Positions 13,501-64,000 of a stretch of 64,000 nucleotides of DNA are shown one piece after another (positions within the stretch are counted from its first letter, which is position 1; every line of letters starts with the position of its first letter). The position numbers and the translations under genes are program-made. The notes under the pieces are model-generated. The model was not told where the DNA came from. It saw only the letters and a program-made list of their open reading frames with translations, and made no database searches. This DNA is from Gemmatales bacterium (lineage in GTDB: Bacteria; Planctomycetota; Planctomycetia; Gemmatales; HRBIN36). The DNA is taken from positions 5,586 to 69,585 of the forward strand of contig JBDHUG010000012.1 of NCBI GenBank assembly GCA_039809045.1. The letters run 5' to 3'.

Positions 13501-13694
13501 TGATTCATTTTGTGCATTTAAGCTGGTTAGTTTAGGGATTATTTATCGATTAATCCGCGTGAATCGATCCTGCCGATTGCCATTAGTATTCTGATCAAAC
13601 AAAGCTATCCGAACTTACCGACGATATTTCTCTTTAGGGGAAGCGATACGCCGTTTGCTTGTGCACTTTACTTCCTCAGCGAGGAGATTGGCTC

Positions 13695-41695: not shown

Positions 41696-44600
41696 TCAGA
41701 CTTGCTGCACCAATCGTGCGGTAAATAGGTAATCGATCCATAGGGAAGTCAACTTCTCGGCGGTGCTGTTCTGCCGCAACCGGGCGTGCAGATGCTCAAA
41801 ATCAACTTGCCTCAGAAATTGATCCTGGTTGAAGCAACTAAAGACGAAACTTTCCTTGCCGGTTTCGGGATCTACATGCCGTTGCATGCATTGGGCGCAG
41901 ATTTCTTTCATCATACACTGCATGGGTGAATTGATTGAACCAATAGCAACGGGCCTTTTTTTGAAGTGCCCTGCCAATGGCCCATCGAGGGATTGGCGCA
42001 CGGCATTCATCATGCGATCCGAGCCGATGGCAATAATCCGATCCGCCTCGTCGAGAGGTACAGGCATGGGGCCAAGTTTACCCGTGCCGTAGGCCGCCAT
42101 GGCCTCGACGATATTGCCGACAAAAGCCTTGTCTTGTGGCCGCCTGGCTTCGATAGCTGGCGCAACATCGGTACTCCAAACGACGACATCACACGCCTTC
42201 TCGATTTCGTGCCGTTTAAACAAGTCGTTTGGCTTCTTGTAACCTGCAAAATAGATCACACGGTTGTGCTTTTCCTTGAGGGCCAGAGCAATTGAAAACA
42301 ACACGGCATTGCCCAACCCCCCGCCAGCCAGCACAACCGTTTCATTCTCCGGTATTTCCGTGGGTGTACCTGTCGGTCCCATCAGAACCACCCGCTCATT
42401 GGGTTCGAGCAATGCACAAAGCCGACTGCTTCCACCCATTTCCAACACAATGATGGAGATCAAACCTTGTCGCTGATCCACCCAAGCTCCCGTTAAGGCA
42501 ATTCCTTCCATCGTCAAACGAAAGCCCTGTACTTCCTCTGCCCGCGTTTCATAATTTTGCAGCCGATAAAACTGGCCAGGTCGAAAGTGCCGCGCAGCCA
42601 AGGGAGCCTTAATGATGACCTCGACAATTTGGTGTGTTAACCGAAAGGCATCGACCACTTCAGCAACCAGCTGTTGGTCCAATTGCTCAACAAAAAGCAC
42701 CCACTGACGCTCTCGCTCTGGTTGCAGTTCTTGCTGCAGCTTATTCAATTCATGCTTGAACAGGTCCGCGATGAACGGGTATCCATGCTTGGCCGATGCC
42801 ATGGCTTTGACAACATTACCCGCATACTTGGCATGCGCATCCCCAAAAAAGCTGATGTATTTATGGTCGTGCTGGTAGGATGTCAGGAAGGCTTCTTGCT
42901 TTTCGGGATCGACCGGCACTAATTTCCGTAAGGAGCCTTCCTGCTCTGCCAGTACATGGGCTTGATAAAACTCGCCGTCCGCATCCAATTGAAAGGTTCC
43001 TGGATATTCCTTTTCGTAGACGGTATTTGGATGGGTGCCGGCGGCGATCAGCACCGTTCGTGCGGGCAATTCGAAAAATTTACCCGAATTCTTCCATTTC
43101 CCTTGAATGTTGTCTTGGTGCTCACAGCGTAAGGCACGTACAGCTCCACATTCATCGGCCAGACATTCAACCGGGCTAAGACATTCGGCAAAAAGGATGC
43201 CTTCCTCGAGTGCTTTGATGACTTCCTCGTGATTGAGTCGATAAGCCGGCGAATCTTGTAGACGTTTGCGATAGGCAATGGTGACGCCTCCCCAAGCACG
43301 GATCAGGCGATTAAAATCGGGCGCCCGACCTGCCGTGGCCGCAGCCGAACGTTCCGTTCGGATTGCCCTCCCATGCTTGAGCCAACGCTGTAGCTTGGCC
43401 CATTCTTCGTTGTCCATGCGTTCACGAATGGCCGATTCGCCTATTTTTTCAACCAGTCTTTCGAAACGATCCAACGTCTTTTCGCACTGCACGACATAAT
43501 ACGCCTGCAATTCCGTCGCCGTGTCGATCGCCGTTAAGCCGCCTCCAATCACGACGGCTGGCAAATCGACTTGCAAGTTGCCCAGGCTGTCATTGCGATA
43601 GATACCTGTGGCCTGCAATCCCATGAGAAAGTCGGAGGCCAGCCGAACTCCGCGCAGCAAATTATTCTTCATGGGAACGAGTGTTGGCCGCCCTGCCCCA
43701 GCACAAATGGCGATATGATGAAATCCCAATTGCCAGGCGTCGTCAATGGTGATGGTCCCACCAAAACGAACACCATCATATAGACCAAACTTTTTCCTGC
43801 GCATCAGCAGCAAATAATTGATATCGAGAAAGTTCTTATCCCAGCGAACAGTAATGCCATACTCGGATACCCCCCCAAAGCCAAGTATGGTCCGTTGATC
43901 CAAAGGCCCCACGATATCCTTAATATCTTTGATCGGTTGTGGCACACGCCGTTTAGCCCCACGCATGCGCAAAGACAATGGTTCAATTTTCAGTCCATCG
44001 ATGCCAATCACGCCGAAACCTTCATTCAGTAGGTGATGCGCAAGGGTGTAACCCGCCGGCCCCATCCCAACGACGAGCACATTCTTACCGTTGTATGCTA
44101 ACGGGTATGGCCGCTTTGCATTGATGGGGTTCCACCGCGAAAGCAATGCATAGATTTCAAAACCATAAGGCAGGTTCAGCACATCGGTCAGGATGCTGGT
44201 CTCGATTTGAGGGATGTTAACAGGCGTTTGTTTTTGATAAATGCACGACTTCATGCAATCGTTGCAGATACGGTGCCCTGTCCCTGCACACAGCGGGTTG
44301 TCAATCATGATCATGGCCAAGGCGCCGATACCATAGCCCTCGCGTTTGAGCAGATGGGCCTCGGAAATCTTCTCGTCAAGTGGACATCCCGTTAACGGAA
44401 TTCCCAAGGGATTGGGTTGAAATTCGTTTTCGCCTTTCGTGAACCCTCGGGAGCATGAGTCCTTTTCACGAGGATGACAAATGATGCAATAGTGCATTTC
44501 CCGGAGTGCTTCCCGAGGGGTCATGCGCGCGTCGGTCAGATTGAATCCGTCGCGGTTACGCCGCGTTTCCGTTGGGCCTTCAAAAATGATGGGCAAGGAT

Positions 44601-45316
44601 TGCAGAAAACGGCGGGGAACCAGGTCGTCAAAGTCCATTTTTTCAGGAATCACAAAGGAAGTGAATCCTTGCCTGCGTCCTTTTAGTTTTGGATGAAATG
44701 CCAATGCTCTCATCCATTCAGTCACGGCCTGCAAAGCTTGTTCATTCCATGCGCGTTTGCCATCCGTTTCACCTTTCGCCCCAGACATCATTAAGCGGGA
44801 AACCACTTCCGCCATTTCCCTTTCTGGATCTGTGGTAAAGACCCCTGGCTCAAGCAGTTCAGCCACAACCTCTCGATAGCGAAACTCCAATTCCTCAACA
44901 TTCATGGCTTCGATTTCCTCTGACGTTGGATGCTTTTTCAGTATCCGTCGATCAAGGAATTCGCGTTTGACTTTGAAGACGACACCATCTTGTTTCGAGC
45001 GGCTATTCATGGCCGCGACAGCTTCTTCAATATGAAAGAGCCTGCCGACAAAATGATCAATATGTTTGGCCAAGGCAATCAACGTTTCACTGAACTCAGG
45101 CGAATGCGGTATGGGTTGTGGTCGATTGCGAAGCTCGATCAACTTGTTAACCAAGTCGGGATCAGACTTTTGTAATTCATCGCGAAAACACTGATCGAGA
45201 TCCATGAGCCGACGCACGCGGTTCAAATCTGCAAATCGAAACCCTGGATAACCCAGAACAAAATTCCAACTGGTTGCCGTGCTGCGCGAAGTTGATGGTA
45301 AATGCATGAAATTCAT
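41696..45316 (-). CDS. fused GltD-like (Fe-S + FAD/NAD(P)) and PyrK-like (FAD/NAD + 2Fe-2S) oxidoreductase with unassigned N-terminal region
   Basis: Cys clusters with GCPLDEKI as in glutamate synthase small-chain relatives. Two dinucleotide folds (VVGMGPAGYTLA, VVIGGGLTAIDTA). The C-terminal ferredoxin-reductase-like part (RPGQFYRLQ, LAGGGLGNAV) ends in C-x5-C-x2-C...C. An alternative ATG lies at 45307. Confidence 0.7.
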   Translation of the reverse strand: MNFMHLPSTSRSTATSWNFVLGYPGFRFADLNRVRRLMDLDQCFRDELQKSDPDLVNKLIELRNRPQPIPHSPEFSETLIALAKHIDHFVGRLFHIEEAVAAMNSRSKQDGVVFKVKREFLDRRILKKHPTSEEIEAMNVEELEFRYREVVAELLEPGVFTTDPEREMAEVVSRLMMSGAKGETDGKRAWNEQALQAVTEWMRALAFHPKLKGRRQGFTSFVIPEKMDFDDLVPRRFLQSLPIIFEGPTETRRNRDGFNLTDARMTPREALREMHYCIICHPREKDSCSRGFTKGENEFQPNPLGIPLTGCPLDEKISEAHLLKREGYGIGALAMIMIDNPLCAGTGHRICNDCMKSCIYQKQTPVNIPQIETSILTDVLNLPYGFEIYALLSRWNPINAKRPYPLAYNGKNVLVVGMGPAGYTLAHHLLNEGFGVIGIDGLKIEPLSLRMRGAKRRVPQPIKDIKDIVGPLDQRTILGFGGVSEYGITVRWDKNFLDINYLLLMRRKKFGLYDGVRFGGTITIDDAWQLGFHHIAICAGAGRPTLVPMKNNLLRGVRLASDFLMGLQATGIYRNDSLGNLQVDLPAVVIGGGLTAIDTATELQAYYVVQCEKTLDRFERLVEKIGESAIRERMDNEEWAKLQRWLKHGRAIRTERSAAATAGRAPDFNRLIRAWGGVTIAYRKRLQDSPAYRLNHEEVIKALEEGILFAECLSPVECLADECGAVRALRCEHQDNIQGKWKNSGKFFELPARTVLIAAGTHPNTVYEKEYPGTFQLDADGEFYQAHVLAEQEGSLRKLVPVDPEKQEAFLTSYQHDHKYISFFGDAHAKYAGNVVKAMASAKHGYPFIADLFKHELNKLQQELQPERERQWVLFVEQLDQQLVAEVVDAFRLTHQIVEVIIKAPLAARHFRPGQFYRLQNYETRAEEVQGFRLTMEGIALTGAWVDQRQGLISIIVLEMGGSSRLCALLEPNERVVLMGPTGTPTEIPENETVVLAGGGLGNAVLFSIALALKEKHNRVIYFAGYKKPNDLFKRHEIEKACDVVVWSTDVAPAIEARRPQDKAFVGNIVEAMAAYGTGKLGPMPVPLDEADRIIAIGSDRMMNAVRQSLDGPLAGHFKKRPVAIGSINSPMQCMMKEICAQCMQRHVDPETGKESFVFSCFNQDQFLRQVDFEHLHARLRQNSTAEKLTSLWIDYLFTARLVQQV

Positions 45317-47048: not shown

Positions 47049-48407
47049 TCAAAGGGTTTTTAGATACTCAATAATGGCCCAGCGTTCCTCAGCGGCCAGG
47101 TTATCGCCAAAAGTGTGCCCGCCGTTGCCGCGTCCTGGCTGGGTCGTGTCATAGATCTTTCGCTTTTCAATAGACGGCAACTGGGGATCTACGGTGCCTG
47201 TCCACTCTTGAAAGCGCCATCCTAGGCGGACGCTGTCGTAATCCGCTTCATTTGTCCGAAACGATCGTGTATAGGCCTTGGGGCGTGCCTGTGAGTTTAA
47301 AACATGATAAACCGTCGGGACCGACCCATTGTGCAAATAGGGTGCTGACGCCCATATCCCATCGAGTGGCGGAGCTTGATAACCCCGCGTCAATTGATAC
47401 TTCAATGGCTGGCCTTGCTCATTGGTTTCCTGGCCAAACCATGTCGAGAGATAATGATCTCGGGCACGCTCAGTGATGGCCATTGCACGAACTGGATCGG
47501 TGCCGATCTCGTCCAACTTCACAATCTTATTCGGATACTGTCCGTCTGGACCATAAGTACCATGACAACTCGAACAGTGGTGATTGAACAGTATTTTGCC
47601 TTGTGCAGCCTTGTTTGTATCGACAGGAAAAGGATACTTCGGCGGCTCAATGGTCTTAATGTAGGCCAGAACATCCATAAAATCTGGCTCCATCGCCTGG
47701 ATGCTATCTCGGGTCGCTAATGGCCCAAGCGTAAATTGCATGATTGAGCGCACGGACGTTGTTGGCGTGCTCCCATCGTAATACATCGTCTTTTTCTTTT
47801 TCATGTGCCACCAGGGAGGCACATCCTCGCACAAGTTGTCTTTGAGACCTAAATCCAATGGTTTAGTGCGCAAGGTAAGATCGGGGTTACGAATGGAAAA
47901 AAGGAAAATCGCCATGGCTGCAGCTTCATTCGTTCCCCGTACATTGGTGAAGGCAAACAATGCCTTGCGCTGCTTACCGCCAAAGCCATAAAGGTCATCA
48001 AATAAGGCTTCAATCTCTAAACTGGCATTGCCCAAACCAATATAGCTTTTGCCGAGCAACGAACTGCCGTGACAAATCATGCAGTCGTTGGTCACTCCGG
48101 GTCGACCTATCAAGGTTTTGGTTTCCCGCAACCCCATTGGTAACCCCTGATTGGAATAGGGAGCTGGATGCAAACCATAGCGCTCCCTGAATAATTGTTC
48201 AAACGCTTCTGGTTTTTCCCTATACCCCCATTGTTTCCAGGCTTGATCGACGGTATCGCGACTCCACAAAGCAGAGTTGAAAGCTCGAGTGGTGAGCAGT
48301 GTATATCCTTTTTGAGCGTCTGGTAATGGTTTGACTGGATTCGCATACACCACAAGCGAGCATAGGCTCAAGCTCATCAGTAGCCAGACCAATGGATGTT
48401 TCTTCAT
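47049..48407 (-). CDS. di-haem c-type cytochrome, secreted
   Basis: Signal peptide and two CxxCH motifs (CMICH, CSSCH). The C-terminal ..GGHTFGDNL..IIEYLKTL tail is seen in di-haem cytochrome/peroxidase-like families. Confidence 0.75.
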   Translation of the reverse strand: MKKHPLVWLLMSLSLCSLVVYANPVKPLPDAQKGYTLLTTRAFNSALWSRDTVDQAWKQWGYREKPEAFEQLFRERYGLHPAPYSNQGLPMGLRETKTLIGRPGVTNDCMICHGSSLLGKSYIGLGNASLEIEALFDDLYGFGGKQRKALFAFTNVRGTNEAAAMAIFLFSIRNPDLTLRTKPLDLGLKDNLCEDVPPWWHMKKKKTMYYDGSTPTTSVRSIMQFTLGPLATRDSIQAMEPDFMDVLAYIKTIEPPKYPFPVDTNKAAQGKILFNHHCSSCHGTYGPDGQYPNKIVKLDEIGTDPVRAMAITERARDHYLSTWFGQETNEQGQPLKYQLTRGYQAPPLDGIWASAPYLHNGSVPTVYHVLNSQARPKAYTRSFRTNEADYDSVRLGWRFQEWTGTVDPQLPSIEKRKIYDTTQPGRGNGGHTFGDNLAAEERWAIIEYLKTL

Positions 48408-53748: not shown

Positions 53749-53767
53749 GAATCACTACTTATCAAAT

Positions 53768-53800
53768 AAAGAGGAAGGCGGCTTTGCCGTCTTCCTCTTT
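53768..53800. terminator. bidirectional terminator hairpin between convergent genes
   Basis: 15-bp stem AAAGAGGAAGGCGGC/GCCGTCTTCCTCTTT (one G-U pair) with a 3-nt loop. A/T runs flank both sides. It sits between the DUF1559 stop (53748) and the AhpD-like stop (53842). Confidence 0.75.
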
Positions 53801-53841
53801 ATTCGTAATTCCATTGTTACAATCGATCAATGTCCAGCAAA

Positions 53842-54174
53842 TTAAGCATTCGTGGCAGACATTAATCCGTGGTCGCGCATCCAAGAAAAAATAGCCACCG
53901 CGGAAGGCAGCCCAATGGTGCTGGCAGACAAGGCAACCAGTTGTTCAATCGCATGCTGAGATACCCCGGCTGCCATGGCTTTGCGTATGGCTGCATGAAC
54001 TGCACCTTCCTTCATTGAGCCAATCGCAATGGCCAGCTTGATTAGCCGAATCGACTTTTCATCCAAAGGGCCTTGTCGTTCGGCTTCGTGTATTTTATCC
54101 CATGCTTCTCCCAACAAGGGATAGCGTTCGATAAACGCAAAAAAAGTGGGTGGTGGACCAGCGGGTTCAGTCAT
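53842..54174 (-). CDS. carboxymuconolactone decarboxylase (AhpD-like) family protein
   Basis: 110 aa with a CMD-family-like helical pattern (..LDEKSIRLIKLAIAIGSMKEGAVHAAIRKAMAAGVS..). It is the last gene of the molybdoenzyme operon. Confidence 0.7.
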   Translation of the reverse strand: MTEPAGPPPTFFAFIERYPLLGEAWDKIHEAERQGPLDEKSIRLIKLAIAIGSMKEGAVHAAIRKAMAAGVSQHAIEQLVALSASTIGLPSAVAIFSWMRDHGLMSATNA

Positions 54175-54230
54175 GGCAGCGTCGTCCTTCTGATCAGGTA
54201 AGTGATTCTGCGTGTATCACTTTACTTGAT

Positions 54231-54842
54231 TTAATGCGCATGTCCACAACCGCAACCCGTCATTTGGTCATTTTCGATAAGACGTTTGGTCACGCCAAAG
54301 TGCTTGGCTAATTCATTGGCCAAGTTGAGATATTTTTCATGCACACCCGGACCAATGTCGTGGTGCTCGACTTTTGTATAAGCCTGCAGCAATTCCTGAT
54401 CATCTTCAGCCGAGGCCACCTGCTCTGCCATGGCGAAGAGGCAATGATCTTCTTTGTTAATATGCTCGCGCAGAAGCTGAACATAGGCTTTGGCGTGATG
54501 GACAAAAGCATGCACATCGTTGGCAACACCCGCTTCAGCACCAGGCAATGCCTTGTTCATTTGTTGAATATAATGCCTACCCAAGGTGTGTTCGCGCAGC
54601 ATAACACCCGTCGGCCCCATTTGCCGACTGAAACCATGGCGTTCCAGCCAAGGGAAGAGATGATCTTCCTCCTTGCCATGATGACACCGATCCGCAAACT
54701 CGCGCAAGAATTCCAAAATCTCCCGTGCCCGATCACCCTTTAAGCGACCTTGCTCTTTGGCTTGTTGAGTCAATACTTCCAAACAGTCCAAGACTTGTTC
54801 AATGACCCGATGCTCTTGCATCAAAATGGCCGTGGCTTGCAT
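54231..54842 (-). CDS. hemerythrin (HHE cation-binding) domain protein
   Basis: GAGGAGG RBS. His/Glu ligand pattern (..MQEHRVIEQ.., ..CHHGKEEDHLF.., ..LREHTLG.., ..LREHINKEDH..). Cys/His-rich tail CGCGHAH. Confidence 0.8.
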   Translation of the reverse strand: MQATAILMQEHRVIEQVLDCLEVLTQQAKEQGRLKGDRAREILEFLREFADRCHHGKEEDHLFPWLERHGFSRQMGPTGVMLREHTLGRHYIQQMNKALPGAEAGVANDVHAFVHHAKAYVQLLREHINKEDHCLFAMAEQVASAEDDQELLQAYTKVEHHDIGPGVHEKYLNLANELAKHFGVTKRLIENDQMTGCGCGHAH

Positions 54843-54899
54843 GTTTAACCTCCTCGATGTGTACTAAGCATCTGCCCTCCGAAGAGCGAGATGAAAAGC

Positions 54900-55691
54900 C
54901 TATATACCTTTACCAACTGAGCAATTGGCACATTCAAGTGGTTCTCCTGCCTCAGCATCGGGCTTGGGCTGCATGGGCATTTCTGGTGCGGGCAAATCGA
55001 ATATCCGACGTTCAATAGTGATGAAGGCTGCCAGAACCTGTGCTAGTTCAGCCAGATAGCCTTCACCTGCTTTGGCACGCAATCCACGCGTAAAGGAAGG
55101 AACCCACCAAGCTAAATGGGCCTCGAAGAAGGAACGAGCTGTTTCTAGGCACATGGCTTCGTTTTGTTCGGCTTGTGCTTCAGACGCTGCTAGCCGCGCT
55201 TTCATAAACAAAAAAGCCATGAATTCCAATTCCAGGGACAGTGCATCATGTCGCACTGATCGGCTGGCAGGTGGCTGCAAGCCGAATGCATGATAAAAGC
55301 CGGCGATGTCCGCCAGTTGTTGGGAACGGAAAAACGGTTCACTGTTGGGTTGAAACTCGGTTTCGAAAGGCGGACATTCACGGCAAGTCATTAACCCAAA
55401 AACACGCTCGTATTCCAGGGTATATTCTTCCAGTGTCAGATCATGATACAGCACCCATAAGGTTTGAAAACTTAACCGATCCTCCTTCACTTCGCCAAAG
55501 CCAAAAGTTGTTGGCTTACCTGCCACCTCCTGCCGAAGGAGTTGAGCAGCCGATTGCAAGAAGTTCAGGTTTTCCGTTGTGAAGTAATTCACGGTCTGTG
55601 CGTAACGTGGATCCGTCAGCGCTGCGGCAAGAAAACGGTAAATGCCTTCGCGTGCCCACTGGATAGTACGTTGCATGACCATTGCTCTCAC
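54900..55691 (-). CDS. TorD/NarJ/DmsD-family redox-enzyme maturation chaperone
   Basis: TorD-like blocks (..YERVFG...CPPFETEF..., ..IAGFYHAFGL..., ..HDALSLELEFMAFL..). The start lies 2 nt after the beta-subunit stop. Confidence 0.7.
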   Translation of the reverse strand: MRAMVMQRTIQWAREGIYRFLAAALTDPRYAQTVNYFTTENLNFLQSAAQLLRQEVAGKPTTFGFGEVKEDRLSFQTLWVLYHDLTLEEYTLEYERVFGLMTCRECPPFETEFQPNSEPFFRSQQLADIAGFYHAFGLQPPASRSVRHDALSLELEFMAFLFMKARLAASEAQAEQNEAMCLETARSFFEAHLAWWVPSFTRGLRAKAGEGYLAELAQVLAAFITIERRIFDLPAPEMPMQPKPDAEAGEPLECANCSVGKGI

Positions 55692-55693
55692 CT

Positions 55694-56986
55694 CTAAATC
55701 GAATTAGCATGCTTGGCAAATGGACGCTGGTGCAACGGTTCCTCAATCGTCACGCGCACCACTTCCTTACCAAATTTGTTGAAGCCAATCACCGTGTCGT
55801 TGAAAAGGTGTTGCACTTTGATTTGGCCATTCGGCATCTTGATGGGTACTTCGGCCACTTTCGGACCTTTCTCAATCTTGAATTTGAATAAGATTTGTCG
55901 CTGGGCGCGGAATAGTTGCAGCACCGCCAACAGTTCCCGATCCGGACAGCAATATTGCTCGATGGCCTGTTCCACCCCGGGCCCAAACATTTGTTGCAGA
56001 TAGCCGCGAGGCACCCAACGGGGCGGTATATAATAACCGTTTGGCTCGGTGCCGAACTGCGGATACAACGGTAACGCAATATGACGTTCGCGAATCAGAT
56101 AGCAAAGGGGATTCTCTGGGTCCTTAGCCCAACGGCCATCTCCATCGATCTTCACCAACCCCTGCATGCGAATCTTGCCGACACAAACCGACATGCACCG
56201 CGTTTCCACCGGTTCCCCATTTGGACTTAATTCCGGGTCCTTGCCTTCGATGCGTGGATAGCAGCCTACACACTTTTCGCTCGTGCGCGTATTTGGACGA
56301 TACATTACCTTCTTATAGGGACATCCCTCAACGCATTTGCGGTAGCCTCGGCAGCGTTCTTGATCGACCAAGACGATGCCGTCCTCAGGGCGTTTGTAAA
56401 TAGCTTGCCGTGGGCAGGCACCAAGACAACCCGGATAGGTACAATGATTGCAGATGCGAGCTAAGTAGAAAAACCAGACGCGATGTTCGGGTAGTTGTGA
56501 TGTTTGGTTGAATGCGCCGGGTTGGTATCTCATTCCTTGTGCCGCGTCTTCATGTAAATTGGGGGTACGCCAATCTGCTTCCGTAGGCAAATAGCCGAAA
56601 ACTTGTTGAGCCCCTTCTGGACCTACGTGCTTTTTGGCAGCATCAAAAATGGTCATACCCGTAAATTCACCGTACGGTTTTTCCTGACTTCTTTGGACTG
56701 TGGCATCCCATACTTGTTTCCCAGGATTTTCCTGGTCGAGCATGGCAAGCAGTTTGGCATCCCAGTTACGCGGATAGCCGCCAAATGGCTTTGTTTCAAC
56801 GTTGTTCCACCACATCGTCTCCTGCCCCTTGGAGAAGGTCCAGGTGCTTTTGCAAGCCATGGTGCATGTCTGGCAAGCAATGCAACGATTGATGTTGAAC
56901 ACGAAGGCGAATTGCCATTGCGGGTGTTTTTCATCGTAAGGGTAACTCATAGGTCGGCCGATTTGCCAGTTATAAACCATAGCCAT
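55694..56986 (-). CDS. NarH/NxrB-like iron-sulfur beta subunit of a type II DMSO-reductase-family enzyme
   Basis: Four Fe-S motifs: CIACQTCTMAC, CNHCTYPGCLGACP, CRGYRKCVEGCPYKK (very NarH-like) and CVGCYPRIEGK. 430 aa. AAGGAA RBS. Confidence 0.9.
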   Translation of the reverse strand: MAMVYNWQIGRPMSYPYDEKHPQWQFAFVFNINRCIACQTCTMACKSTWTFSKGQETMWWNNVETKPFGGYPRNWDAKLLAMLDQENPGKQVWDATVQRSQEKPYGEFTGMTIFDAAKKHVGPEGAQQVFGYLPTEADWRTPNLHEDAAQGMRYQPGAFNQTSQLPEHRVWFFYLARICNHCTYPGCLGACPRQAIYKRPEDGIVLVDQERCRGYRKCVEGCPYKKVMYRPNTRTSEKCVGCYPRIEGKDPELSPNGEPVETRCMSVCVGKIRMQGLVKIDGDGRWAKDPENPLCYLIRERHIALPLYPQFGTEPNGYYIPPRWVPRGYLQQMFGPGVEQAIEQYCCPDRELLAVLQLFRAQRQILFKFKIEKGPKVAEVPIKMPNGQIKVQHLFNDTVIGFNKFGKEVVRVTIEEPLHQRPFAKHANSI

Positions 56987-56999
56987 GGCCAGGTTCCTT

Positions 57000-57410
57000 T
57001 CAGGAGAGAAGCCCTTCCGAATGTTCCCGTCGCCGCAACGAAAGTTGGATCAAGCCCATGTCATCGTCTGCTTCGATCAAATCTGGGTCTGGTGTTTCGT
57101 CAACAACTGCTGTCACTCGCACACCAGCCATGCTTGCGATCAACTCATCGATCTCTGCCATCACCCGTGCTTCACCAAAATGGTCATACAATTGCTTCAG
57201 CACGGGAAATTCATCGTTCCGAAACAAGCTCAACAAATCCTCACGACTCCATCCCATCCACAAGTATTCGTCGATCATGCAGCGGAGCATCAATGCTGGA
57301 TCGCCATTCACAACGTTGGTCATCAGTTCCATGGGATCTTCGGGAAACATCTCCCGATCCAGGGGATGAACTTTAGGGACCATGTTGTCAGCCAAGGTAT
57401 CCATCGCCAT
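57000..57410 (-). CDS. small acidic protein of unknown function between alpha and beta subunit genes
   Basis: 136 aa with no signal peptide, rich in Asp/Glu. A strong AAGGAG RBS lies 5 nt upstream of the ATG and immediately after the alpha-subunit stop. Its own stop is 13 nt before the beta start. Confidence 0.65.
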   Translation of the reverse strand: MAMDTLADNMVPKVHPLDREMFPEDPMELMTNVVNGDPALMLRCMIDEYLWMGWSREDLLSLFRNDEFPVLKQLYDHFGEARVMAEIDELIASMAGVRVTAVVDETPDPDLIEADDDMGLIQLSLRRREHSEGLLS

Positions 57411-57421
57411 TCACTCCTTGA

Positions 57422-60400
57422 TTAACTTCGCACCTTAATCAGTCCACCGCTGAGGTATTGCAGATTGAGCGGTGAATCATTACCAGGGGTGAAGACCATG
57501 TCGGCGGTTTCCCACGGGCCTTTACCGCCTAATCCACCGTCTTCCGCTTTGACGATGCGAACCAGGGTCTCTTTCGGCACCGTGTTGACTGCATGATTGT
57601 CGGCTTCGCCACCGAACATGAACGCCATCTTCACCTTGGCTTTGTGGAACAAACTGTCGGTTTGATGCATCGGCATCAACCAATTGCGCGTACAGGATTG
57701 TTGCGCACCGTAGCGTAAATTGGCTTGATATCCGGTATCGGCGGAGCGTGCGCGCCCATCAGCACTATTTTCGTGGGCATGAACCGTTTTTTCCGTGGCA
57801 ATGAAAGGAGCATGTTTGATCATGACCACGCCACGTGGATAACTCGGATTGTAGACGACCCTGAGCATGAGCCGAGCCACCTTGGCTCGTGCAGGGTCTT
57901 GCTGCCAGCCGCGGAAAGGCCGATCTGCGGGATTGGAATCCACATATGCATAATCCCCATTCATGAGGCCCATTTCCTTGGCATCATCTGGATTCATGTG
58001 CATTTGATGATCGCCATATCCAGGCAGCCGTTTATCGGTCCGGAAAGGGTCGCCGTGATTGGAATCCCAAATGATATGCCAATCCACCGTCGACCAAGAA
58101 GAATGGACGCGGTGTCTTGATTTCGGCGTCAACAAGAAATAGCGGTAGCCCGCTTCCCAGAGCGGATTCTTGGTTTGTTTTACTTCATTCCAGGGTAACT
58201 TGACGTTCCGAATGGTGCGTTCATCCCAATGCATGGCGTCGCGGGGAATACCAAAATCTTCAGGCCTAATCATTGGGTTCGAACTGACGATCACATTGGG
58301 CAGATAGGGTGTTGCTTCCGGCCCCTCGCGATGAACGATGAAATTCTCACCATGTAGAATCGCTTCAGGGATGTCGCAATAGCTGTTCAGTCTACCCGTG
58401 TCGGTCCAGAAGGGCACGTGATCGTGCATGTTTTCATAGAACGGGATACGCGGGTAAGTTCGGAACAACATCAAAGCTACGCCCGGCTCGCCATACTTGC
58501 CATTGATGATGTCATCGACCTTATAACCGCGGGTCGTGGTAGAACCATCCAATAGCCTCTGCATGTATATTTTCACACCTTGTGTTTTGTCCTTGAGGAT
58601 AAATCGCCAATAATTGGCAAATCGTTCATCACCCGTTTCTTTGGCCAAGGCTTCAGCGGTATCCGCAAGGATATGAACGTCATCATGAGCATCGTGAACC
58701 GGATCGATACCGCCTTTCCATATGTTCAAAAACGGATTCGAGCAAGAAGCAGTGATTTCATACGTTTGAAATTCCATCCACGTATTGGCCGGGAAGACCA
58801 TGTCGGCATATTCACACGAACTGGTCATCTCACAATCTTGTGCGATGATGCAATCAATTTTGGGATTCACGACAAAGAGCATGTCATAGGCATGCTTGGC
58901 ATTATTGAACAAATTGACATTGGTGAACCACAGGAATTTGGTCGGCGTGGGCATATGAGTTTTGCCCGTAAAACATCGGCGCCCCATTTTCGGCGTGTCA
59001 ACAATAAGAGGCCTTTCGCCGTGATTCCAATAAGCGGGCTCTTCATCCTTCGTCAGTTTCAAAACCTTGATGGAGTTGCCGTCAGTGGCCGGGTCGAGAT
59101 TTGGCTTGAAAGGATCCTCGGCAATCCAGCCCAAAAAACCCGGCCCGGTGCCTTCGGCGCCCTGAAACAGTGCCGCTTTGTAATTCCCAGCCCATGTGAA
59201 GCAACCTGCCCCAGGGCGCCCCAATTGCCCCGTGAGCATCAAGGGCAGGTACTGCGACCGATTCGCCAACGTTGCATGGAACCAATGGTTGATGCCTTCC
59301 CCGACATGAATCGCTACCGAATGACCACGTTCGGTTGTTTCCCAAATATCCTTGGCAAGTTGAGCGAGTAGTTCTTTGTTTGAACCGGTGATTTGCGCGA
59401 CCGTATCCAGATCGTAATCCTGCAGATTGATCTGATAAGCGTCCCATAAGGTCATTACTTCTACTTCATGTCCATCCACCAGTTTGACTTTTCCTTTGTA
59501 CGACAAAGCTGGCGTGATTCCCGCTTGTTGCATGCGTTCGCCCATTTCGTCGCGGGTGATTGGTCGAAGTGCGTTTTGCTTTTCGTCAAAGATGACAAAG
59601 TCTCCGATCTTGGCATATTGTTCATCAGTGAGATGCTGATAGCTGAAGGAAGGTCCTTTCTTATCCAGCTTGAGTTGGTAACCAGGGAATAATTCACTGG
59701 CGCGTAGCCGCTTCAAATTATCGGTGCGTATGAGCAGCGGAAAGTCCGTGTATGCTTTGACAAAATCGGCTTTGTACCAGCCTTGATCGATCATGTGCTT
59801 GGTAACGGCCAAAAATAAAGCTGTATCAGTGCAACCTGGTCGGACCTGGATCCAATAATTCGCTTTCGTCGCCGGCGGACCATATTCGGGTGTGATCACA
59901 ACAATCTTGCCACCCCTCTCCATCAGTTCGTTGAACCAATGGTTGTCGGGCATTTTGTTTTCGACAAGGTTCTTGCCACACTGAATATGCAGTTTGGCAT
60001 TGCGCATGTCGTTGAAATCACAATCAGATGTTTGCAAACCATGAACGAATGGATGCCCAGGCGCCTGATCACCGTGCCAGGTATAATTGGACCAGAGCCT
60101 ACCTCCCAGGCAATCCTTCGCTGCCACCTTACGAATGGACTCATCGAGCAGAGCGAGCATGTTGGCCCAACGATAAATACCATACTTGCCCATCACGCCA
60201 AGCAACCCCATGCCCCCGCGTAGCTTGAAGGTCCGCGTGCCAGCACCATGGCATTCATCGATCATTTCTGGTTCATAGCCGTCTGCTTTCAGACGTTTTG
60301 CACCCTCAGAGCCTGAATAAGTCTTGGCAATAGCAACCACCGCTTTGGCATGGTAGCGATAGATCTCATCCCATGTCACCCGAACGAAAGTATCCGTGCC

Positions 60401-60886
60401 ACGCGAATTGAATTTGTATTTATCACGCAATTCAGGGTTATCCGACAATGAAGGGAAACCATCGTCGGCCCATGCTTTCCAGCCCTTGCGAATCAATGGA
60501 TAGCGGAGCCGATAAGGCCCGTAGAGCCGACGCTGTTGCGTAAATCCTTTGGCACACCCGCGCGGATTCCAGTGCTCGGTGTCCGTATGGCCGTACAAAT
60601 CTTTGACTTTGCCGCTTTCGTATTGTTGTTCCGACCTCAAGACGATGCCATTGCGAACAAAAGCAACCATGCGACAGTTGTGCGTGTCGTTTGGCGCACA
60701 TACCCAGGAAAAGGACCGATCGTAGCGATATTGATCTCGATAAACTTCTTCCCATCCACGATTGGGATAGACACCCAGTGGATTGGCAATATTGACCGGC
60801 TGTAACCCAAAAAGGTGTGGCAGCATCAAAGATTGAGTTGATATGGCCAGGCTGCTTGCCAGAAAGTCGCGACGATTCATGTCCAA
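57422..60886 (-). CDS. Tat-exported molybdopterin oxidoreductase alpha subunit, NxrA/NarG-like (type II DMSO reductase family)
   Basis: Twin-arginine signal MNRRDFLASS. FS0-type motif C-x3-D-x3-C (CAPNDTHNC, nt 60674-60700). 1154 aa. It is flanked by gamma, beta and chaperone genes. Confidence 0.9.
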   Translation of the reverse strand: MDMNRRDFLASSLAISTQSLMLPHLFGLQPVNIANPLGVYPNRGWEEVYRDQYRYDRSFSWVCAPNDTHNCRMVAFVRNGIVLRSEQQYESGKVKDLYGHTDTEHWNPRGCAKGFTQQRRLYGPYRLRYPLIRKGWKAWADDGFPSLSDNPELRDKYKFNSRGTDTFVRVTWDEIYRYHAKAVVAIAKTYSGSEGAKRLKADGYEPEMIDECHGAGTRTFKLRGGMGLLGVMGKYGIYRWANMLALLDESIRKVAAKDCLGGRLWSNYTWHGDQAPGHPFVHGLQTSDCDFNDMRNAKLHIQCGKNLVENKMPDNHWFNELMERGGKIVVITPEYGPPATKANYWIQVRPGCTDTALFLAVTKHMIDQGWYKADFVKAYTDFPLLIRTDNLKRLRASELFPGYQLKLDKKGPSFSYQHLTDEQYAKIGDFVIFDEKQNALRPITRDEMGERMQQAGITPALSYKGKVKLVDGHEVEVMTLWDAYQINLQDYDLDTVAQITGSNKELLAQLAKDIWETTERGHSVAIHVGEGINHWFHATLANRSQYLPLMLTGQLGRPGAGCFTWAGNYKAALFQGAEGTGPGFLGWIAEDPFKPNLDPATDGNSIKVLKLTKDEEPAYWNHGERPLIVDTPKMGRRCFTGKTHMPTPTKFLWFTNVNLFNNAKHAYDMLFVVNPKIDCIIAQDCEMTSSCEYADMVFPANTWMEFQTYEITASCSNPFLNIWKGGIDPVHDAHDDVHILADTAEALAKETGDERFANYWRFILKDKTQGVKIYMQRLLDGSTTTRGYKVDDIINGKYGEPGVALMLFRTYPRIPFYENMHDHVPFWTDTGRLNSYCDIPEAILHGENFIVHREGPEATPYLPNVIVSSNPMIRPEDFGIPRDAMHWDERTIRNVKLPWNEVKQTKNPLWEAGYRYFLLTPKSRHRVHSSWSTVDWHIIWDSNHGDPFRTDKRLPGYGDHQMHMNPDDAKEMGLMNGDYAYVDSNPADRPFRGWQQDPARAKVARLMLRVVYNPSYPRGVVMIKHAPFIATEKTVHAHENSADGRARSADTGYQANLRYGAQQSCTRNWLMPMHQTDSLFHKAKVKMAFMFGGEADNHAVNTVPKETLVRIVKAEDGGLGGKGPWETADMVFTPGNDSPLNLQYLSGGLIKVRS

Positions 60887-60919
60887 CTCCTCTCCGGGGA
60901 GGTAAACGTCTCTAGCCCA

Positions 60920-62602
60920 TTACTCCACGGTTAATTCGTGCCAAATGGAAATTTGCTTCTGACCATTACGATCACGGTAGGCACCATCCCAGATTGAAAA
61001 TGCGATGAAGCATTTTTTGCCAGAGTTCAGTAGCACGCCTTCATTGTTTTGCACCTGTAATGGCCGTGTAAACACCACCGACCACTGGCCCGATTCATAC
61101 TTTGCATGTGCGTTCACGACTTGTGAGCTCAACGGTCGAAATGTTGTGCTGCCCGGTCCTTGAGCCATCAAGTTGCTCGCGTTGTTTCCATTGGCGGATG
61201 CACTGTTCTGATTTTTGGCTGCTCGAGCAGTGATGAAGTCAGGAATCGGGCGATCAGACTTAGGCAGCCTCTTCAATAACTGTTGATAAAAAGGCAGATC
61301 AAAGGGATAGTCGTCCAAAATGTGTTTCGAGGCTGTTTGATCAACCGCATGGCTCGCCTTCCATAGCCAGATATCAACGACGCCAAATCCATGTGCCCCC
61401 ATGCCGATGAAGGGCTCGTTCTGTCCATCGAATAGTTGCAGGGATGCTTGGTCCTCAAAATCTTCAGGACGCAGGATGGAGTCATTCTTAGTTGAATCAT
61501 TCCAGCTCATACGCACAGCCAGCTGTTTGCCATCGTGCACCATCTGAACTTGTAAATGTGGCGGTTGCCAATCACGCCACCATAATGGCGCTGTGACAAC
61601 GAACGTGGATGGTACTTGCTGCCAATCGACACGGTTGAGATCGGCTACCCGCCTGGCCACCAACGCTTCACGCTTGAATTGAACTTGTTTCATGGCTGAT
61701 TCTGGCGCAAGCGAACGAATAAAATGCACCATATCCATGATTTCAGTGGGCTTTAGCTGCGGACTACCAGGCATGGGCGTTCCCGGCATGCCGATTTGCG
61801 TGCGGCGATACAGCGAAGCCACATCACGTCCCCCTTTGAAAATTCCTAATGTGAAATCGCGTGGTTTCGTAGGGGTCCCGTCGTCGTCGCGTTGATCTTT
61901 GCCGCCCTCGCCACGGCCTGTTTCTCCATGGCAAGTGGCACAATTGGCCATGTACAAAGCCCGACCACGCAGCACACTGGCCTGCTCTTCTTTAGGCATG
62001 TCTGTGGGTAAAGAGATCAAATCGCCAGGAGTTGTTTGCCGAACGGATTCCTTTTTGATTTGTTGCAGGTCTACTTCATCACCGGCGTCTTCATAAGCCT
62101 TCTTGAGTCGCTGTTCAATGCCTAAACGAGAAAGCTCACGAACGTATTGAACCAACGTTTTGCGTTCCATATCAGACAAGTGACCAAAAGCCACCATTAT
62201 CGAACCAGGCATGCCGTTGGTGATGACTTGCATCAAATCTTCATCTGTGGGAATGCGATTGATGGTGGAGATAACCTTAAACTTGCCTTCCTGGAAATTG
62301 CGTGGCTTCGGATATAAGAATGGAGCAGCAATGCCAAGCCCATCCCCCTTATCGCCATGACAGGAAGCACAATGGCGGTCATAGAGGGCTTTGCCCATGG
62401 CTAGCATGGGATTAGCCGAATCGCCGGGCTGGGTTGCAATTTGCGTTACAGGATGCAAGATAACAGCTTCGTAAGGCTTGCTATAAGCCCAAGCCCAGAT
62501 ACCACTCCCACACCCAATCCCTATTCCCAGAATCAGGAGCCCTTTTGAGATGGTTTGCGTCATGATTATGCTCCTTGGGATCATCGTCGCTACCGTTGTC
62601 AA
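60920..62602 (-). CDS. membrane-anchored di-haem cytochrome c fused to an EB_dh-type (ethylbenzene dehydrogenase gamma-like) haem-b domain; NxrC-like gamma subunit
   Basis: N-terminal TM helix. Two CxxCH motifs (CASCH at nt 62357-62371, and CATCH). The C-terminal block (..MGAHGFGVVDIWLWKA...WSVVFTRPL...IAFSIWDGAYRDRNGQKQISIWHEL) resembles the EB_dh/DOMON-like family. Confidence 0.8.
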   Translation of the reverse strand: MTTVATMIPRSIIMTQTISKGLLILGIGIGCGSGIWAWAYSKPYEAVILHPVTQIATQPGDSANPMLAMGKALYDRHCASCHGDKGDGLGIAAPFLYPKPRNFQEGKFKVISTINRIPTDEDLMQVITNGMPGSIMVAFGHLSDMERKTLVQYVRELSRLGIEQRLKKAYEDAGDEVDLQQIKKESVRQTTPGDLISLPTDMPKEEQASVLRGRALYMANCATCHGETGRGEGGKDQRDDDGTPTKPRDFTLGIFKGGRDVASLYRRTQIGMPGTPMPGSPQLKPTEIMDMVHFIRSLAPESAMKQVQFKREALVARRVADLNRVDWQQVPSTFVVTAPLWWRDWQPPHLQVQMVHDGKQLAVRMSWNDSTKNDSILRPEDFEDQASLQLFDGQNEPFIGMGAHGFGVVDIWLWKASHAVDQTASKHILDDYPFDLPFYQQLLKRLPKSDRPIPDFITARAAKNQNSASANGNNASNLMAQGPGSTTFRPLSSQVVNAHAKYESGQWSVVFTRPLQVQNNEGVLLNSGKKCFIAFSIWDGAYRDRNGQKQISIWHELTVE

Positions 62603-62733
62603 CTCAACAACGCAAATGAAATGCCAATACTCGTTCGAACTAGAAAAGTATGTTCCGCATTACAGGGGGTTGACTATGCACGGTGGCAAGGGGCTAAGTT
62701 TCACCAGACATGCTTACCTAATCCGCACATTTG

Positions 62734-62752
62734 CTGTGCAGATGCTGCACAG
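62734..62752. promoter_or_regulatory. inverted repeat CTGTGCAG-ATG-CTGCACAG in the divergent control region
   Basis: Perfect 8-bp arms separated by 3 nt. It lies in the 331-bp gap between the gamma-subunit gene and the cupredoxin gene. Confidence 0.4.
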
Positions 62753-62933: not shown

Positions 62934-63710
62934 ATGGCGCATCAACCAATCAAACGGTTAATACTTTTTTTGGTCTCAAGTGTTGGGCTGTGTCTAATAG
63001 GAATTGTCGGTGGTTTGGCGAATGCCATGCCTGACCCAATGGCCGATGGATGGGGTACAATCAAAGGGCAAATCATTTTTGACGGAACGGCTCCAACACC
63101 TGAAAACCTTAAAGTGGACAAAGATACGGATCACTGCTTGTCGAAAGGCCCTATCAAGAGTGAGGCATGGACAGTAGATCCTAAAAGCAAGGGAGTAAAA
63201 TGGGTCACGATTTTCTTGAAGCCTGCCAAAGGTCAATCCTTACCAGTTCATGATTCCCTCAAAGCTGTACCAAGTGAACCAGCCTATTTGGATCAGCCTC
63301 TTTGCACATTCGCACCACATGTGATTGCCATGCGTGAAGGGCAAAAATTGATTGCTAAAAACCCAGCCCCGATTCCACACAATGTCATTTTGTCTGGGCT
63401 TAGCAACTCAATGAACGTATCCACTCCAGCAGGCGGATCGTACACTTTCGATGTCAATTATGAGCCAGGTCCCATCACGATCAACTGTGGAGCGCATCCA
63501 TGGATGCGTGGTCACGTATGGGTCTTTAAACATCCTTATTTTGCGGTCACCGATGATGAAGGCCGCTTTGAAATCAAGCTGGCTCCCGCGGGTAAACGGC
63601 AATTGGTTATTTGGCACGAGATGGCTGGGTTCGTACCCGACAAGAATGGTCAAACCATTGATGTGACAGCCAATGGTGTCCTAGATTTAGGTACGATCAA
63701 GATTAAATGA
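62934..63710 (+). CDS. type-1 copper cupredoxin (amicyanin/plastocyanin-like) with C-terminal beta-sandwich (carboxypeptidase-regulatory-like) domain
   Basis: ATG at 62934 with AAGGA upstream (alternative start at 62913). Signal/anchor sequence, upstream His ligand context IPHNV, and C-x2-H-x2-M (CGAHPWM, nt 63486-63506). The tail ..FAVTDDEGRFEIKLAPAGKRQLVIWHE is typical of CarboxypepD_reg-like folds. Confidence 0.75.
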   Translation: MAHQPIKRLILFLVSSVGLCLIGIVGGLANAMPDPMADGWGTIKGQIIFDGTAPTPENLKVDKDTDHCLSKGPIKSEAWTVDPKSKGVKWVTIFLKPAKGQSLPVHDSLKAVPSEPAYLDQPLCTFAPHVIAMREGQKLIAKNPAPIPHNVILSGLSNSMNVSTPAGGSYTFDVNYEPGPITINCGAHPWMRGHVWVFKHPYFAVTDDEGRFEIKLAPAGKRQLVIWHEMAGFVPDKNGQTIDVTANGVLDLGTIKIK

Positions 63711-63795: not shown

Positions 63796-63831
63796 CCTCT
63801 CCTCACGGTGCGTGAGGAGAGGATGTGTTTT
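63796..63831 (+). terminator. rho-independent terminator after the cupredoxin gene
   Basis: Perfect 11-bp stem CCTCTCCTCAC/GTGAGGAGAGG with a 5-nt loop, followed by ATGTGTTTT. Confidence 0.8.
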
Positions 63832-63866
63832 GGCTGAACTCAACACTTTGTTCACTTGGTGGCCTC

Positions 63867-64000
63867 ATGCCTCACAGTTACGCAACAGGGCCAAAAAAAG
63901 TGGATACCCCACCCAACGCGGCTACAACCACTCCAAACAATGGAGGGAAACTGAGCCTTTTGCTTGTTGATGACGATCAAGATTATCGTTCGATTGTCGC
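63867..64000 (+). CDS. probable response regulator, N-terminal fragment (3' end outside window)
   Basis: ATG at 63867. The frame is open to the window end, and ...KLSLLLVDDDQDYRSIV matches the start of a receiver domain after a short low-complexity leader. Confidence 0.4.
   Translation, partial: MPHSYATGPKKVDTPPNAATTTPNNGGKLSLLLVDDDQDYRSIV

Follow-up and report, generated by a model that had tools for sequence, protein, structure and literature searches.

Nitrite oxidoreductases (NXR) that face the periplasm are known from Nitrospira, Nitrospina and the anammox bacteria, and constitute one clade of the type II dimethyl sulfoxide (DMSO) reductase family. The active-site residues and the ligands of the FS0 iron-sulfur cluster have been defined in the structure of the enzyme from Kuenenia stuttgartiensis (PDB 7B04), which works in both directions in vitro, and the identity among the enzymes of anammox bacteria, Scalindua and nitrite-oxidising bacteria amounts to roughly 60-66% (PMC8387239; Chicano et al. 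2021). In addition, nitrate as an anoxic electron acceptor has been raised for Nitrospira moscoviensis (PMC6606698), and the wider clade includes nitrate-reducing Thermogutta (PMC10732223) and likewise Methanoperedens (PMC5673643). In 19 metagenome-assembled genomes (MAGs) of Planctomycetota, among them Pirellulaceae, Planctomycetaceae and Bythopirellula, Suarez et al. 2023 (PMC10732223) described nxrABC clusters that contain an NxrA-like gene. Enzymes of NXR type exported by the twin-arginine translocation (Tat) system were reported in MAGs of Planctomycetota and Pedosphaeraceae by Poghosyan et al. 2020 (bioRxiv 10.1101/2020.05.19.103440), and nxr homologues across many phyla by Mosley et al. 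2022 and Zhang et al. 2023; findings of the same kind are found in PMC9562985, PMC10359470 and PMC9306079, the last of which states that the direction "remains unknown". Both the occurrence of such enzymes in non-anammox Planctomycetota and the question of their direction are thus already published. The present analysis concerns a seven-gene operon of this kind on the minus strand of a 64,000-nucleotide stretch from a Gemmatales bacterium (assembly GCA_039809045.1, contig JBDHUG010000012.1), hereafter termed the window, which a first-pass annotation made from the letters alone had singled out as a complete NXR/NAR-type molybdoenzyme operon.

Sequence comparison confirmed the assignment of the encoded enzyme to the type II DMSO reductase family and, within this family, to the periplasmic NXR (pNXR) clade of Nitrospira, Nitrospina and anammox bacteria, as had been proposed by the first-pass annotation. 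In a search of the alpha, beta and gamma subunits and of the small open reading frame (ORF) between alpha and beta against all PDB sequences, alpha matched K. stuttgartiensis NxrA (KsNxrA, 7B04_B) over its full length with 1595 bits and 60.2% identity, a value inside the published span between anammox, Scalindua and nitrite-oxidiser enzymes, and the next-best match was PcrA with 163 bits; PcrA, EbdA and NarG together span 131-163 bits, and NarG of Escherichia coli (1Q16) lies at 131-137 bits. Correspondingly, beta matched NxrB (7B04_A) over its full length with 577 bits, and its four cysteine groups all align with those of NxrB in 7B04. The subunit sizes, on which the earlier proposal had partly relied, fit as well, with 1154 and 430 residues here and 1148 and 410 in Kuenenia. 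The scores for TIGR03479 (alpha) and TIGR03478 (beta, 250 bits with a curated cut-off of 480.7) stay below the curated cut-offs.

The residues that define catalysis in Kuenenia are retained in the alpha subunit. The molybdenum-ligating aspartate D273, whose presence the first-pass annotation had left to be verified, aligns with D275 of KsNxrA and is invariant in 90 of 90 relatives. FS0, a [4Fe-4S] cluster held by three cysteines and one aspartate, would be bound by C63, D67, C71 and C111, corresponding to C67, D71, C75 and C115 of KsNxrA; the three cysteines are invariant in the 90 relatives, and the position of D67 is occupied by aspartate in 83 of them and by cysteine in the other seven. The substrate asparagine N66 stands beside this aspartate (N70-D71 in KsNxrA) and is likewise invariant throughout the 90 relatives; in EbdA it is replaced by isoleucine (PMC8387239). 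Moreover, the N-terminus (MDMNRRDFLASS...) carries the twin-arginine motif NRRDFLA, the arginine pair of which is kept in 87-88 of the 90 relatives, so alpha is predicted to be exported by the Tat system and to face the periplasm. An identity as cytoplasmic NarGHI is ruled out by this motif, by a gamma subunit built from EB_dh and cytochrome c domains, and by the low NarG scores.

The gamma subunit, with a mass of 62 kDa, is a fusion of two cytochrome c domains, whose CxxCH motifs lie at C78 and C221, with a C-terminal EB_dh haem-b domain (PF09459, 81 bits). Its N-terminal half matches the Kuenenia dihaem cytochrome c 6H5L_B (124 bits), and its C-terminal half matches NxrC (7B04_C) as well as EbdC. 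The haem-b ligands Met401 and Lys549 align with M155 and K305 of KsNxrC and with the ligands of EbdC, Met401 being one position off relative to NxrC and exact relative to EbdC in the phmmer alignment. The N-terminal hydrophobic segment (residues 21-39) could be either a signal anchor or a cleaved signal peptide.

The relatives of the alpha subunit were compared across 98 loci in total, each scan returning the closest 80, and all of them stem from metagenome bins, with not a single isolate. The closest alpha sequences, with 75-88% identity, belong to MAGs that bear the labels Pirellulales, Pirellulaceae, Anatilimnocola, Gemmataceae, Planctomycetaceae and Phycisphaerae. A profile-guided scan extended the family to at least 568 species-representative genomes of phyla including Chloroflexota, Omnitrophota, Elusimicrobia, Sumerlaeota, Armatimonadota, Acidobacteriota, Methylomirabilota and Nitrospinota, and a large protein database yielded 2294 matches to alpha below 1e-50. 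The host, which the first-pass annotation had called unexpected, is therefore less of a surprise, given this spread and the reports of 2020-2023. As a side observation, several bins with clusters of planctomycete or pNXR type (L015, L022, L086, L091 and P0096) carry implausible taxon labels such as "Alcaligenaceae", "Kiloniellales", "Syntrophobacteraceae" and "Leptolyngbya sp. PLA2", which probably reflect mis-binning or mislabelling in public records.

In a midpoint-rooted neighbour-joining tree of 91 alpha sequences (949 columns), in which Kuenenia NxrA (residues 31-981) and Nitrospinota MAGs were the only anchors, the window alpha falls into a planctomycete-dominated clade, here called clade I, with a bootstrap value of 100/100. 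This clade largely follows planctomycete taxonomy and stands apart from the group comprising the Kuenenia and Nitrospinota sequences and a second planctomycete-containing clade. A five-gene core of gamma, alpha, small ORF, beta and chaperone is present in all complete clade-I loci and in one Acidobacteria locus. Across the family, two layouts can be distinguished: in the first, to which the window belongs, the dihaem-c/EB_dh gamma fusion is encoded 5' of alpha, whereas in the second, typical of Chloroflexota, a plain gamma subunit is encoded 3' of the chaperone. In the closest relative (L001), whose alpha is 88% identical, synteny reaches beyond the operon and includes the regulators and the cupredoxin gene described below.

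Recurring neighbours of the family comprise Rrf2 regulators (22 loci), MobB, a TIGR04053/AhbD-like radical SAM protein and MOSC. A NarQ/NarX-like kinase (PilJ, HAMP, GAF and HisKA_3 domains) and a NarL-like regulator lie directly upstream in 10-13 Chloroflexota loci (for instance L063:1107-3650, L038, L040, L044, L051, L058 and L065). After filtering of alternative-frame ORFs, no oxidase, complex III or nitrite reductase was found to recur within 8-10 kb of the cluster, and hence the direction of the reaction is not inferable from this context. Two further neighbours were observed in other parts of the family, namely a protein with several transmembrane segments and no Pfam match downstream in 21 Chloroflexota-type loci, which is a possible membrane anchor, and a protein of about 330 residues with a cysteine-rich C-terminus and no match in Pfam or NCBIfam. 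The latter is encoded 3' of the chaperone in L068 (278-1270) and in 20 other loci of clade II, Omnitrophota and Nitrospinota (L033-L036, L045, L053, L061, L064, L077-L082, L085, L090-L093, L096 and L098).

The small acidic protein (134-136 residues, isoelectric point 4.2) encoded between alpha and beta has zero matches in Pfam, NCBIfam and the PDB sequences. Homologs stand between the two subunit genes in most pNXR-like loci, across several phyla and both layouts, and Nitrospinaceae are included. The protein family comprises 435 representative clusters at 50% identity, all of which are short standalone proteins devoid of annotation, and look-ups of cluster members returned "hypothetical protein" throughout. 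Two motifs are conserved, VPKVHPLDRE..DPMEL near the N-terminus and DETPDPDL..LIQLSLR near the C-terminus. The AlphaFold (AF2) model of the protein features a confident core of four helices, for which Foldseek gave no PDB match (best E = 5.8). Because the protein is absent from the crystallised NxrABC complex, it is probably a cytoplasmic factor for assembly or maturation of the enzyme, and we regard it as a candidate for such a role.

The chaperone of the operon scores 64 bits with PF02613 and 62 bits, below the cut-off, with TIGR03482, and its gene is kept 3' of beta in nearly all loci. The two last genes of the operon encode variable accessory proteins outside the conserved core. The first is a hemerythrin-domain protein (Pfam, 68.5 bits) with weak similarity to YtfE/RIC and a C-terminal CGCGHAH motif; ten loci (L001, L004, L005, L008, L026, L056, L079, L090, L092 and L093) have a hemerythrin gene within the cluster or adjoining it, and in four of these it separates alpha from beta. 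The second is a protein of 110 residues assigned to the fold family PF02627 (38.6 bits), homologs of which (43-89% identity) are encoded near an nxr-like cluster in six loci (L001, L004, L008, L027, L035 and L093). The label "AhpD-like" given to it at first had to be narrowed to membership of the CMD family: the entire sequence contains no cysteine and therefore lacks the catalytic CxxC motif of AhpD, which rules out an AhpD of peroxidase type.

All seven genes were found intact at the positions given by the first-pass annotation, and its domain assignments agree with Pfam and NCBIfam (Table 1). They are tightly packed, with gaps of 2-57 nucleotides, and run from 62563 or 62602 down to 53842. 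The gene calls of the source contig place several starts slightly later, namely gamma at ATG 62563, alpha at ATG 60880, the small ORF at 57404 and the chaperone at 55682. For gamma, ATG 62563, which is preceded by an AAGGAG ribosome-binding site and yields a product of 547 residues, is likely the true start; alpha counts 1154 residues from TTG 60886 or 1152 from ATG 60880. The strong bidirectional terminator noted earlier at 53768-53800 was recovered as a slightly longer hairpin with arms of 18 nucleotides (94% complementary), a loop of three nucleotides and A/T-rich flanks on both sides (AATAAA/TTTATT).

Table 1. Coordinates of the operon, its terminator and the adjoining upstream features (positions within the window).
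Feature	Position	Strand	Evidence or remark
Gamma subunit, NxrC-like fusion	60920..62602	-	Pfam Cytochrom_C, Cytochrome_CBB3, EB_dh; TIGR03477
Alpha catalytic Mo-bisMGD subunit, NxrA-like, Tat motif	57422..60886	-	Molybdopterin domain; TIGR03479; 7B04_B
Conserved small acidic protein	57000..57410	-	Position between alpha and beta
Beta Fe-S electron-transfer subunit, NxrB-like, 430 aa	55694..56986	-	TIGR03478, Fer4_11, 7B04_A
NarJ/TorD-type private chaperone (type II DMSO reductase)	54900..55691	-	Nitrate_red_del, TIGR03482
Hemerythrin-domain di-iron protein, accessory	54231..54842	-	Pfam Hemerythrin
CMD-family protein (carboxymuconolactone decarboxylase/AhpD superfamily), accessory	53842..54174	-	Pfam CMD
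Hairpin terminator, common to the operon and the convergent DUF1559 gene	53765..53803	.	Inverted repeat
Membrane-anchored predicted cupredoxin (type-1 copper), C-terminal Ig-like domain	62934..63710	+	Divergent from the operon
Candidate sigma-54 (-24/-12) promoter, TGGCAT-N5-TTGC	62612..62626	-	Precedes the gamma start codon (ATG 62563) by about 50 nt
Perfect palindrome CTGTGCAG-cat-CTGCACAG, candidate enhancer (upstream activating sequence, UAS)	62734..62752	.	About 110 nt further upstream than the sigma-54 element
Sigma-54-dependent response regulator, 5' end	63825..64000	+	Runs off the window; gene calls of the source contig (L019) and Pfam

Upstream of gamma and divergent from it lies the gene of a protein for which a Pfam search at E = 10 returned no cupredoxin family; its identity as a cupredoxin and predicted copper binder was therefore deduced from ligand conservation and a structure model. 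The putative copper ligands H149, C185, H188 and M191 show no variation among 40 homologs, and the AF2 model (pLDDT 91) was matched by Foldseek with a probability of 1.00 and TM scores of 0.6-0.8 to amicyanin, plastocyanin and the cupredoxin domain of NirK (cupredoxin_1). Homologs adjoin the cluster in L001, L005, L017, L033, L091 and L093 (five other lineages besides the window), and the family as a whole exceeds 409 members, the bulk of which stem from Gemmataceae and further Planctomycetota and are largely annotated as hypothetical. Further traits of the protein are an N-terminal anchor, a beta-rich segment with invariant C68 and C124, which possibly form a disulfide, and a C-terminal Ig domain resembling CarboxypepD_reg. 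The cupredoxin is a candidate redox partner of gamma.

The intergenic region also contains a sigma-54 promoter candidate. Window-wide, its pattern occurs at chance level (47 found, 48 expected), but at the same relative position the element was found in four of 36 loci (the window, L001, L009 and L022) as compared to 0.0085 expected per locus. The palindrome further upstream, a counterpart of which (TGTGCGG...CCGCACA) precedes gamma in L001, may serve as the UAS of a sigma-54 activator. A suitable activator gene, that of the response regulator, starts beyond the cupredoxin gene and is followed on the contig by the gene of a protoglobin-domain histidine kinase; beside the operon, L001, the closest relative, is the only other locus to keep this pair. 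In Nitrospira, too, regulators that depend on sigma-54 adjoin the nxrAB loci (PMC6606698). Between the cupredoxin and response-regulator genes, a terminator-like hairpin at 63796-63822 (+) with a stem of 12 bp, including eight GC pairs, suggests that the two genes are separate transcription units.

As judged from its genes, the host is a divergent, non-anammox member of the Planctomycetia of the heterotroph type, in line with the first-pass annotation. The neighbours of the operon encode DUF1501, PSCyt1/DUF1549/DUF1553 and DUF1559 proteins, sulfatases, a Ser/Thr kinase and a MacB-type efflux system. Elsewhere in the 64-kb window, genes of the nitrogen cycle, including hzs and hdh, and of carbon fixation were not found, and the visible 64-81 kb of the contig contain no genes for CO2 fixation or terminal oxidases. 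The housekeeping protein TrpE is nearest to those of Planctomycetaceae, Pirellulaceae and Planctomicrobium MAGs, although no species representative exceeds the range of 57-62% identity, with Brocadia and Scalindua at 50-56%; moreover, the window NxrA is not sister to that of Kuenenia in the neighbour-joining tree. An anammox host (Brocadiales) is ruled out by the lack of hzs and hdh in the window, the TrpE values and the NxrA placement. The operon shares a uniform GC content with its flanks, and on this ground and on that of the synteny with L001 past the operon, its interpretation as an island of horizontal transfer was set aside. As findings that would count against its proposal, the first-pass annotation had named a position of alpha inside a characterised non-nitrogen clade, a host that is a known nitrite oxidiser or anammox organism, and the loss of the molybdenum aspartate; none of these emerged. 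Several other genes of the window were recorded in passing. A RoxA-like protein of the dihaem cytochrome c peroxidase type, another periplasmic haem protein, is encoded at 47049-48407 (-), 6 kb from the operon. The gene of a tryptophan-halogenase-like FAD enzyme at 40408-41682 (+) adjoins that of a protein of 1206 residues at 41696-45316 (-) with Pyr_redox_2 as its sole domain. The ORFs at 30108-36458 (-), 22849-25287 (+) and 13659-14846 (+), which encode 2116, 812 and 395 residues, contain no Pfam domain at E <= 1e-5.

Regarding function, the operon encodes a periplasmic NXR with a Tat motif that is predicted to interconvert nitrite and nitrate, and we consider nitrate respiration under low oxygen its likeliest role, though with about even confidence as to this direction. 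Maturation would take place in the cytoplasm, where the NarJ/TorD chaperone, and probably also the 134-residue protein, may act at cofactor insertion, before Tat export. In the assembled enzyme, electrons could pass between the molybdenum-bis(molybdopterin guanine dinucleotide) cofactor (Mo-bisMGD; Asp273, Asn66), FS0, the four Fe-S clusters of beta, the Met/Lys-ligated haem b and the two c haems of gamma, which would exchange them with a pool of high-potential carriers in the periplasm, including possibly the neighbouring cupredoxin. In nitrate respiration, the route would lead from quinol via complex III or alternative complex III (ACIII) to cytochrome c or cupredoxin, then to gamma and eventually to nitrate, and the reverse reaction, nitrite oxidation, might become possible once oxygen is available. 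Transcription in this lineage would start from the candidate sigma-54 promoter, governed by the adjacent response regulator together with the protoglobin kinase, whose haem domain may sense a gas. The lean towards nitrate reduction stems from the heterotrophic context of the window, devoid of carbon-fixation genes, from the frequency of the family in lineages such as Omnitrophota, Elusimicrobia, Dehalococcoidia and Anaerolineae, most of which were recovered from anammox reactors and anoxic habitats, from the NarQ/NarX-NarL genes around the Chloroflexota loci and the Rrf2 genes in 22 loci, and from the place of the nitrate reducers Thermogutta and Methanoperedens in the wider clade. Several considerations weigh against this assignment. 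To our knowledge, every characterised member of the tight pNXR group (Nitrospira, Nitrospina, anammox) oxidises nitrite in vivo. A high-potential haem b, c haems and a cupredoxin would serve nitrite oxidation just as well; Nitrospira nxr systems likewise show the dihaem-c/NxrC fusion and sigma-54 control (PMC6606698), the cupredoxin family is not exclusive to nxr loci, and the NarXL and Rrf2 contexts belong to other sub-clades. In addition, clade I is known from metagenome bins, no cultured or biochemically studied member of it was found, searches of the literature on planctomycete cultures and gene expression yielded nothing decisive, and the visible part of the genome amounts to 64-81 kb.

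The strongest rival reading, which is possible but falls well short of probable, assumes that the enzyme is a nitrite oxidase in vivo: electrons from periplasmic nitrite would reach a terminal oxidase by way of the Fe-S chain, haem b, both c haems of gamma and finally the cupredoxin, thereby supplying extra energy to a heterotroph with a lithoheterotrophic or mixotrophic lifestyle. Apart from the precedent of the characterised members, this reading can draw on the high expression of a dihaem-c "alternative NxrC" with a transmembrane helix in nitrite-oxidising Nitrospira, whose nxrAB are flanked by sigma-54 regulators (PMC6606698), on the Met/Lys haem b, which is of the high-potential type (PMC8387239), and on the blue copper protein gene adjoining the operon. 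Furthermore, nitrite oxidation was hypothesised for Planctomycetota MAGs with oxygen reductases (PMC10732223), a possible non-autotrophic nitrite oxidation was noted in PMC9306079, and both the hemerythrin and the protoglobin sensor could be linked to oxygen. On the other hand, neither carbon-fixation nor oxidase genes are visible in the 64-81 kb, the energy yield would be small for an organotroph, and no culture is known to show nitrite oxidation by planctomycetes outside the anammox bacteria; the abundance of the family in lineages mostly recovered from anoxic settings and the NarQ/NarL-type regulators flanking it elsewhere, which are typical of nitrate respiration, speak against it as well.

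A change of substrate had been kept as an alternative by the first-pass annotation; be it to chlorate or perchlorate, selenate, another oxyanion or a substrate for hydroxylation as in ethylbenzene dehydrogenase, such a change is disfavoured by the residues of the alpha subunit. It is true that the type II DMSO reductase family has switched substrates repeatedly, that clade I is set off by full bootstrap support at about 60-65% identity to characterised NXRs, and that the TIGR03479 and TIGR03478 scores remain below their cut-offs. However, the substrate asparagine and the molybdenum aspartate are invariant, no fixed substitution specific to clade I was found in the alpha alignment, similarity to Pcr, Ebd and Nar is lower by an order of magnitude, and regulators of N-oxide type surround members of the family. 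In the other family members, Kuenenia and Nitrospinota among them, 302 columns of the alignment reach a conservation of at least 97%, and since the window alpha matches 294 of these, a new substrate is improbable. Even less credence is due to the idea of a non-functional or unexpressed passenger, recently transferred or decaying. A patchy phylogenetic distribution with probable horizontal transfer, and the horizontal acquisition inferred by Mosley et al. for an archaeal MAG, would be compatible with it, yet the seven intact ORFs with their conserved ligands, the GC content matching the flanks, the shared neighbourhood with L001 down to regulators and cupredoxin, and the broad agreement of clade I with planctomycete taxonomy render it scarcely credible.

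No major biological source of nitrate other than nitrite oxidation is known, and nxrA is counted as potential for nitrite oxidation in marker surveys. Since this enzyme type is present in hundreds of heterotroph-like species (at least 568 species-level genomes here), its direction determines whether these surveys put nitrification too high or nitrate reduction too low. A bolder proposition, which we put forward only tentatively and regard as rather unlikely, is that the clade-I enzymes are nitrite oxidases of organotrophic Planctomycetia, with the dihaem gamma and the cupredoxin leading to an oxidase, and, as a smaller claim, that the 134-residue family is an obligatory maturation factor or subunit of NXR. 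If the first of these holds, a large, widespread and overlooked guild of non-autotrophic, non-canonical nitrite oxidisers would inhabit soils, groundwater, sediments and oxygen-deficient waters. The window by itself leaves existing knowledge unchanged; as a clean and complete example with plausible partner and regulator genes, it may serve as a template for heterologous expression, cultivation and transcript studies.

Among the described systems, the Kuenenia NXR is the closest match, sharing Tat export, the molybdenum aspartate, the substrate asparagine, FS0 with three cysteines and one aspartate, an EB_dh gamma subunit, the Met/Lys-ligated haem b and homology over the full length. In contrast to Kuenenia, gamma of the window bears two c-haem domains behind an N-terminal anchor or signal segment, its gene precedes that of alpha, neither an NXR-T tubule subunit nor an anammoxosome context nor hzs/hdh is seen in the window, the host is a heterotroph-type member of the Planctomycetia, and alpha belongs to a separate clade with 100% bootstrap support. 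With Nitrospira and Nitrospina, the locus has the pNXR clade, sigma-54 regulators beside the nxr genes and a TorD-like chaperone in common, and MAG loci of Nitrospinaceae and Nitrospinota also feature a homolog of the small ORF between nxrA and nxrB. By description, the alternative NxrC of N. moscoviensis (NITMOv2_3640) resembles the gamma subunit closely, with a signal peptide, one transmembrane helix, a dihaem cytochrome c and a mass of about 64 kDa as compared to 62 kDa here (PMC6606698). In Nitrospira, however, the nxrC candidates lie away from nxrAB and the main gamma is soluble and devoid of c haems, whereas the fusion is the only gamma of the window and part of the operon; moreover, the Nitrospira and Nitrospina hosts are chemolithoautotrophs.

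The enzymes Ebd, Pcr, Clr, Ser and Ddh as well as the nitrate reductases of Thermogutta terrifontis and Methanoperedens likewise combine Tat export, aspartate-ligated Mo-bisMGD, a NarH-like beta, an EB_dh gamma and a NarJ/TorD chaperone. Ebd, Pcr and their kin differ by alpha scores of only 137-163 bits and by shorter alpha and beta subunits (899-976 and 333-352 residues), EbdA in addition by the isoleucine in place of the substrate asparagine. Pcr, Clr and Ser draw their electrons from the periplasmic cytochrome c pool, and the same model is proposed here for nitrate reduction. The similarity to NarGHI of E. coli (1Q16) extends to the superfamily, the nitrate/nitrite chemistry, the aspartate ligand of molybdenum, FS0, the four-cluster beta subunit and NarJ. 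On the contrary, NarG faces the cytoplasm without functional Tat export, NarI is an integral dihaem-b quinol oxidase rather than an EB_dh protein, and FS0 of NarG is ligated by histidine.

The clusters previously reported from MAGs of Pirellulaceae, Planctomycetaceae and Phycisphaerae resemble the operon in their Tat-exported NxrA-like gene, its strong match to Kuenenia NxrA and the nxrABC arrangement, although two MAGs of Suarez et al., OFTM371 and OFTM353 (L077 and L079), fall into the second planctomycete-containing clade and not into clade I. The small conserved ORF, the cupredoxin neighbour and the sigma-54/protoglobin control do not feature in these papers. Hence, the additions made here to the published picture are modest and consist in the definition of clade I, the small-protein family, the cupredoxin neighbour, the proposed sigma-54/protoglobin control, and the assignment of the last operon gene to the CMD family instead of AhpD.

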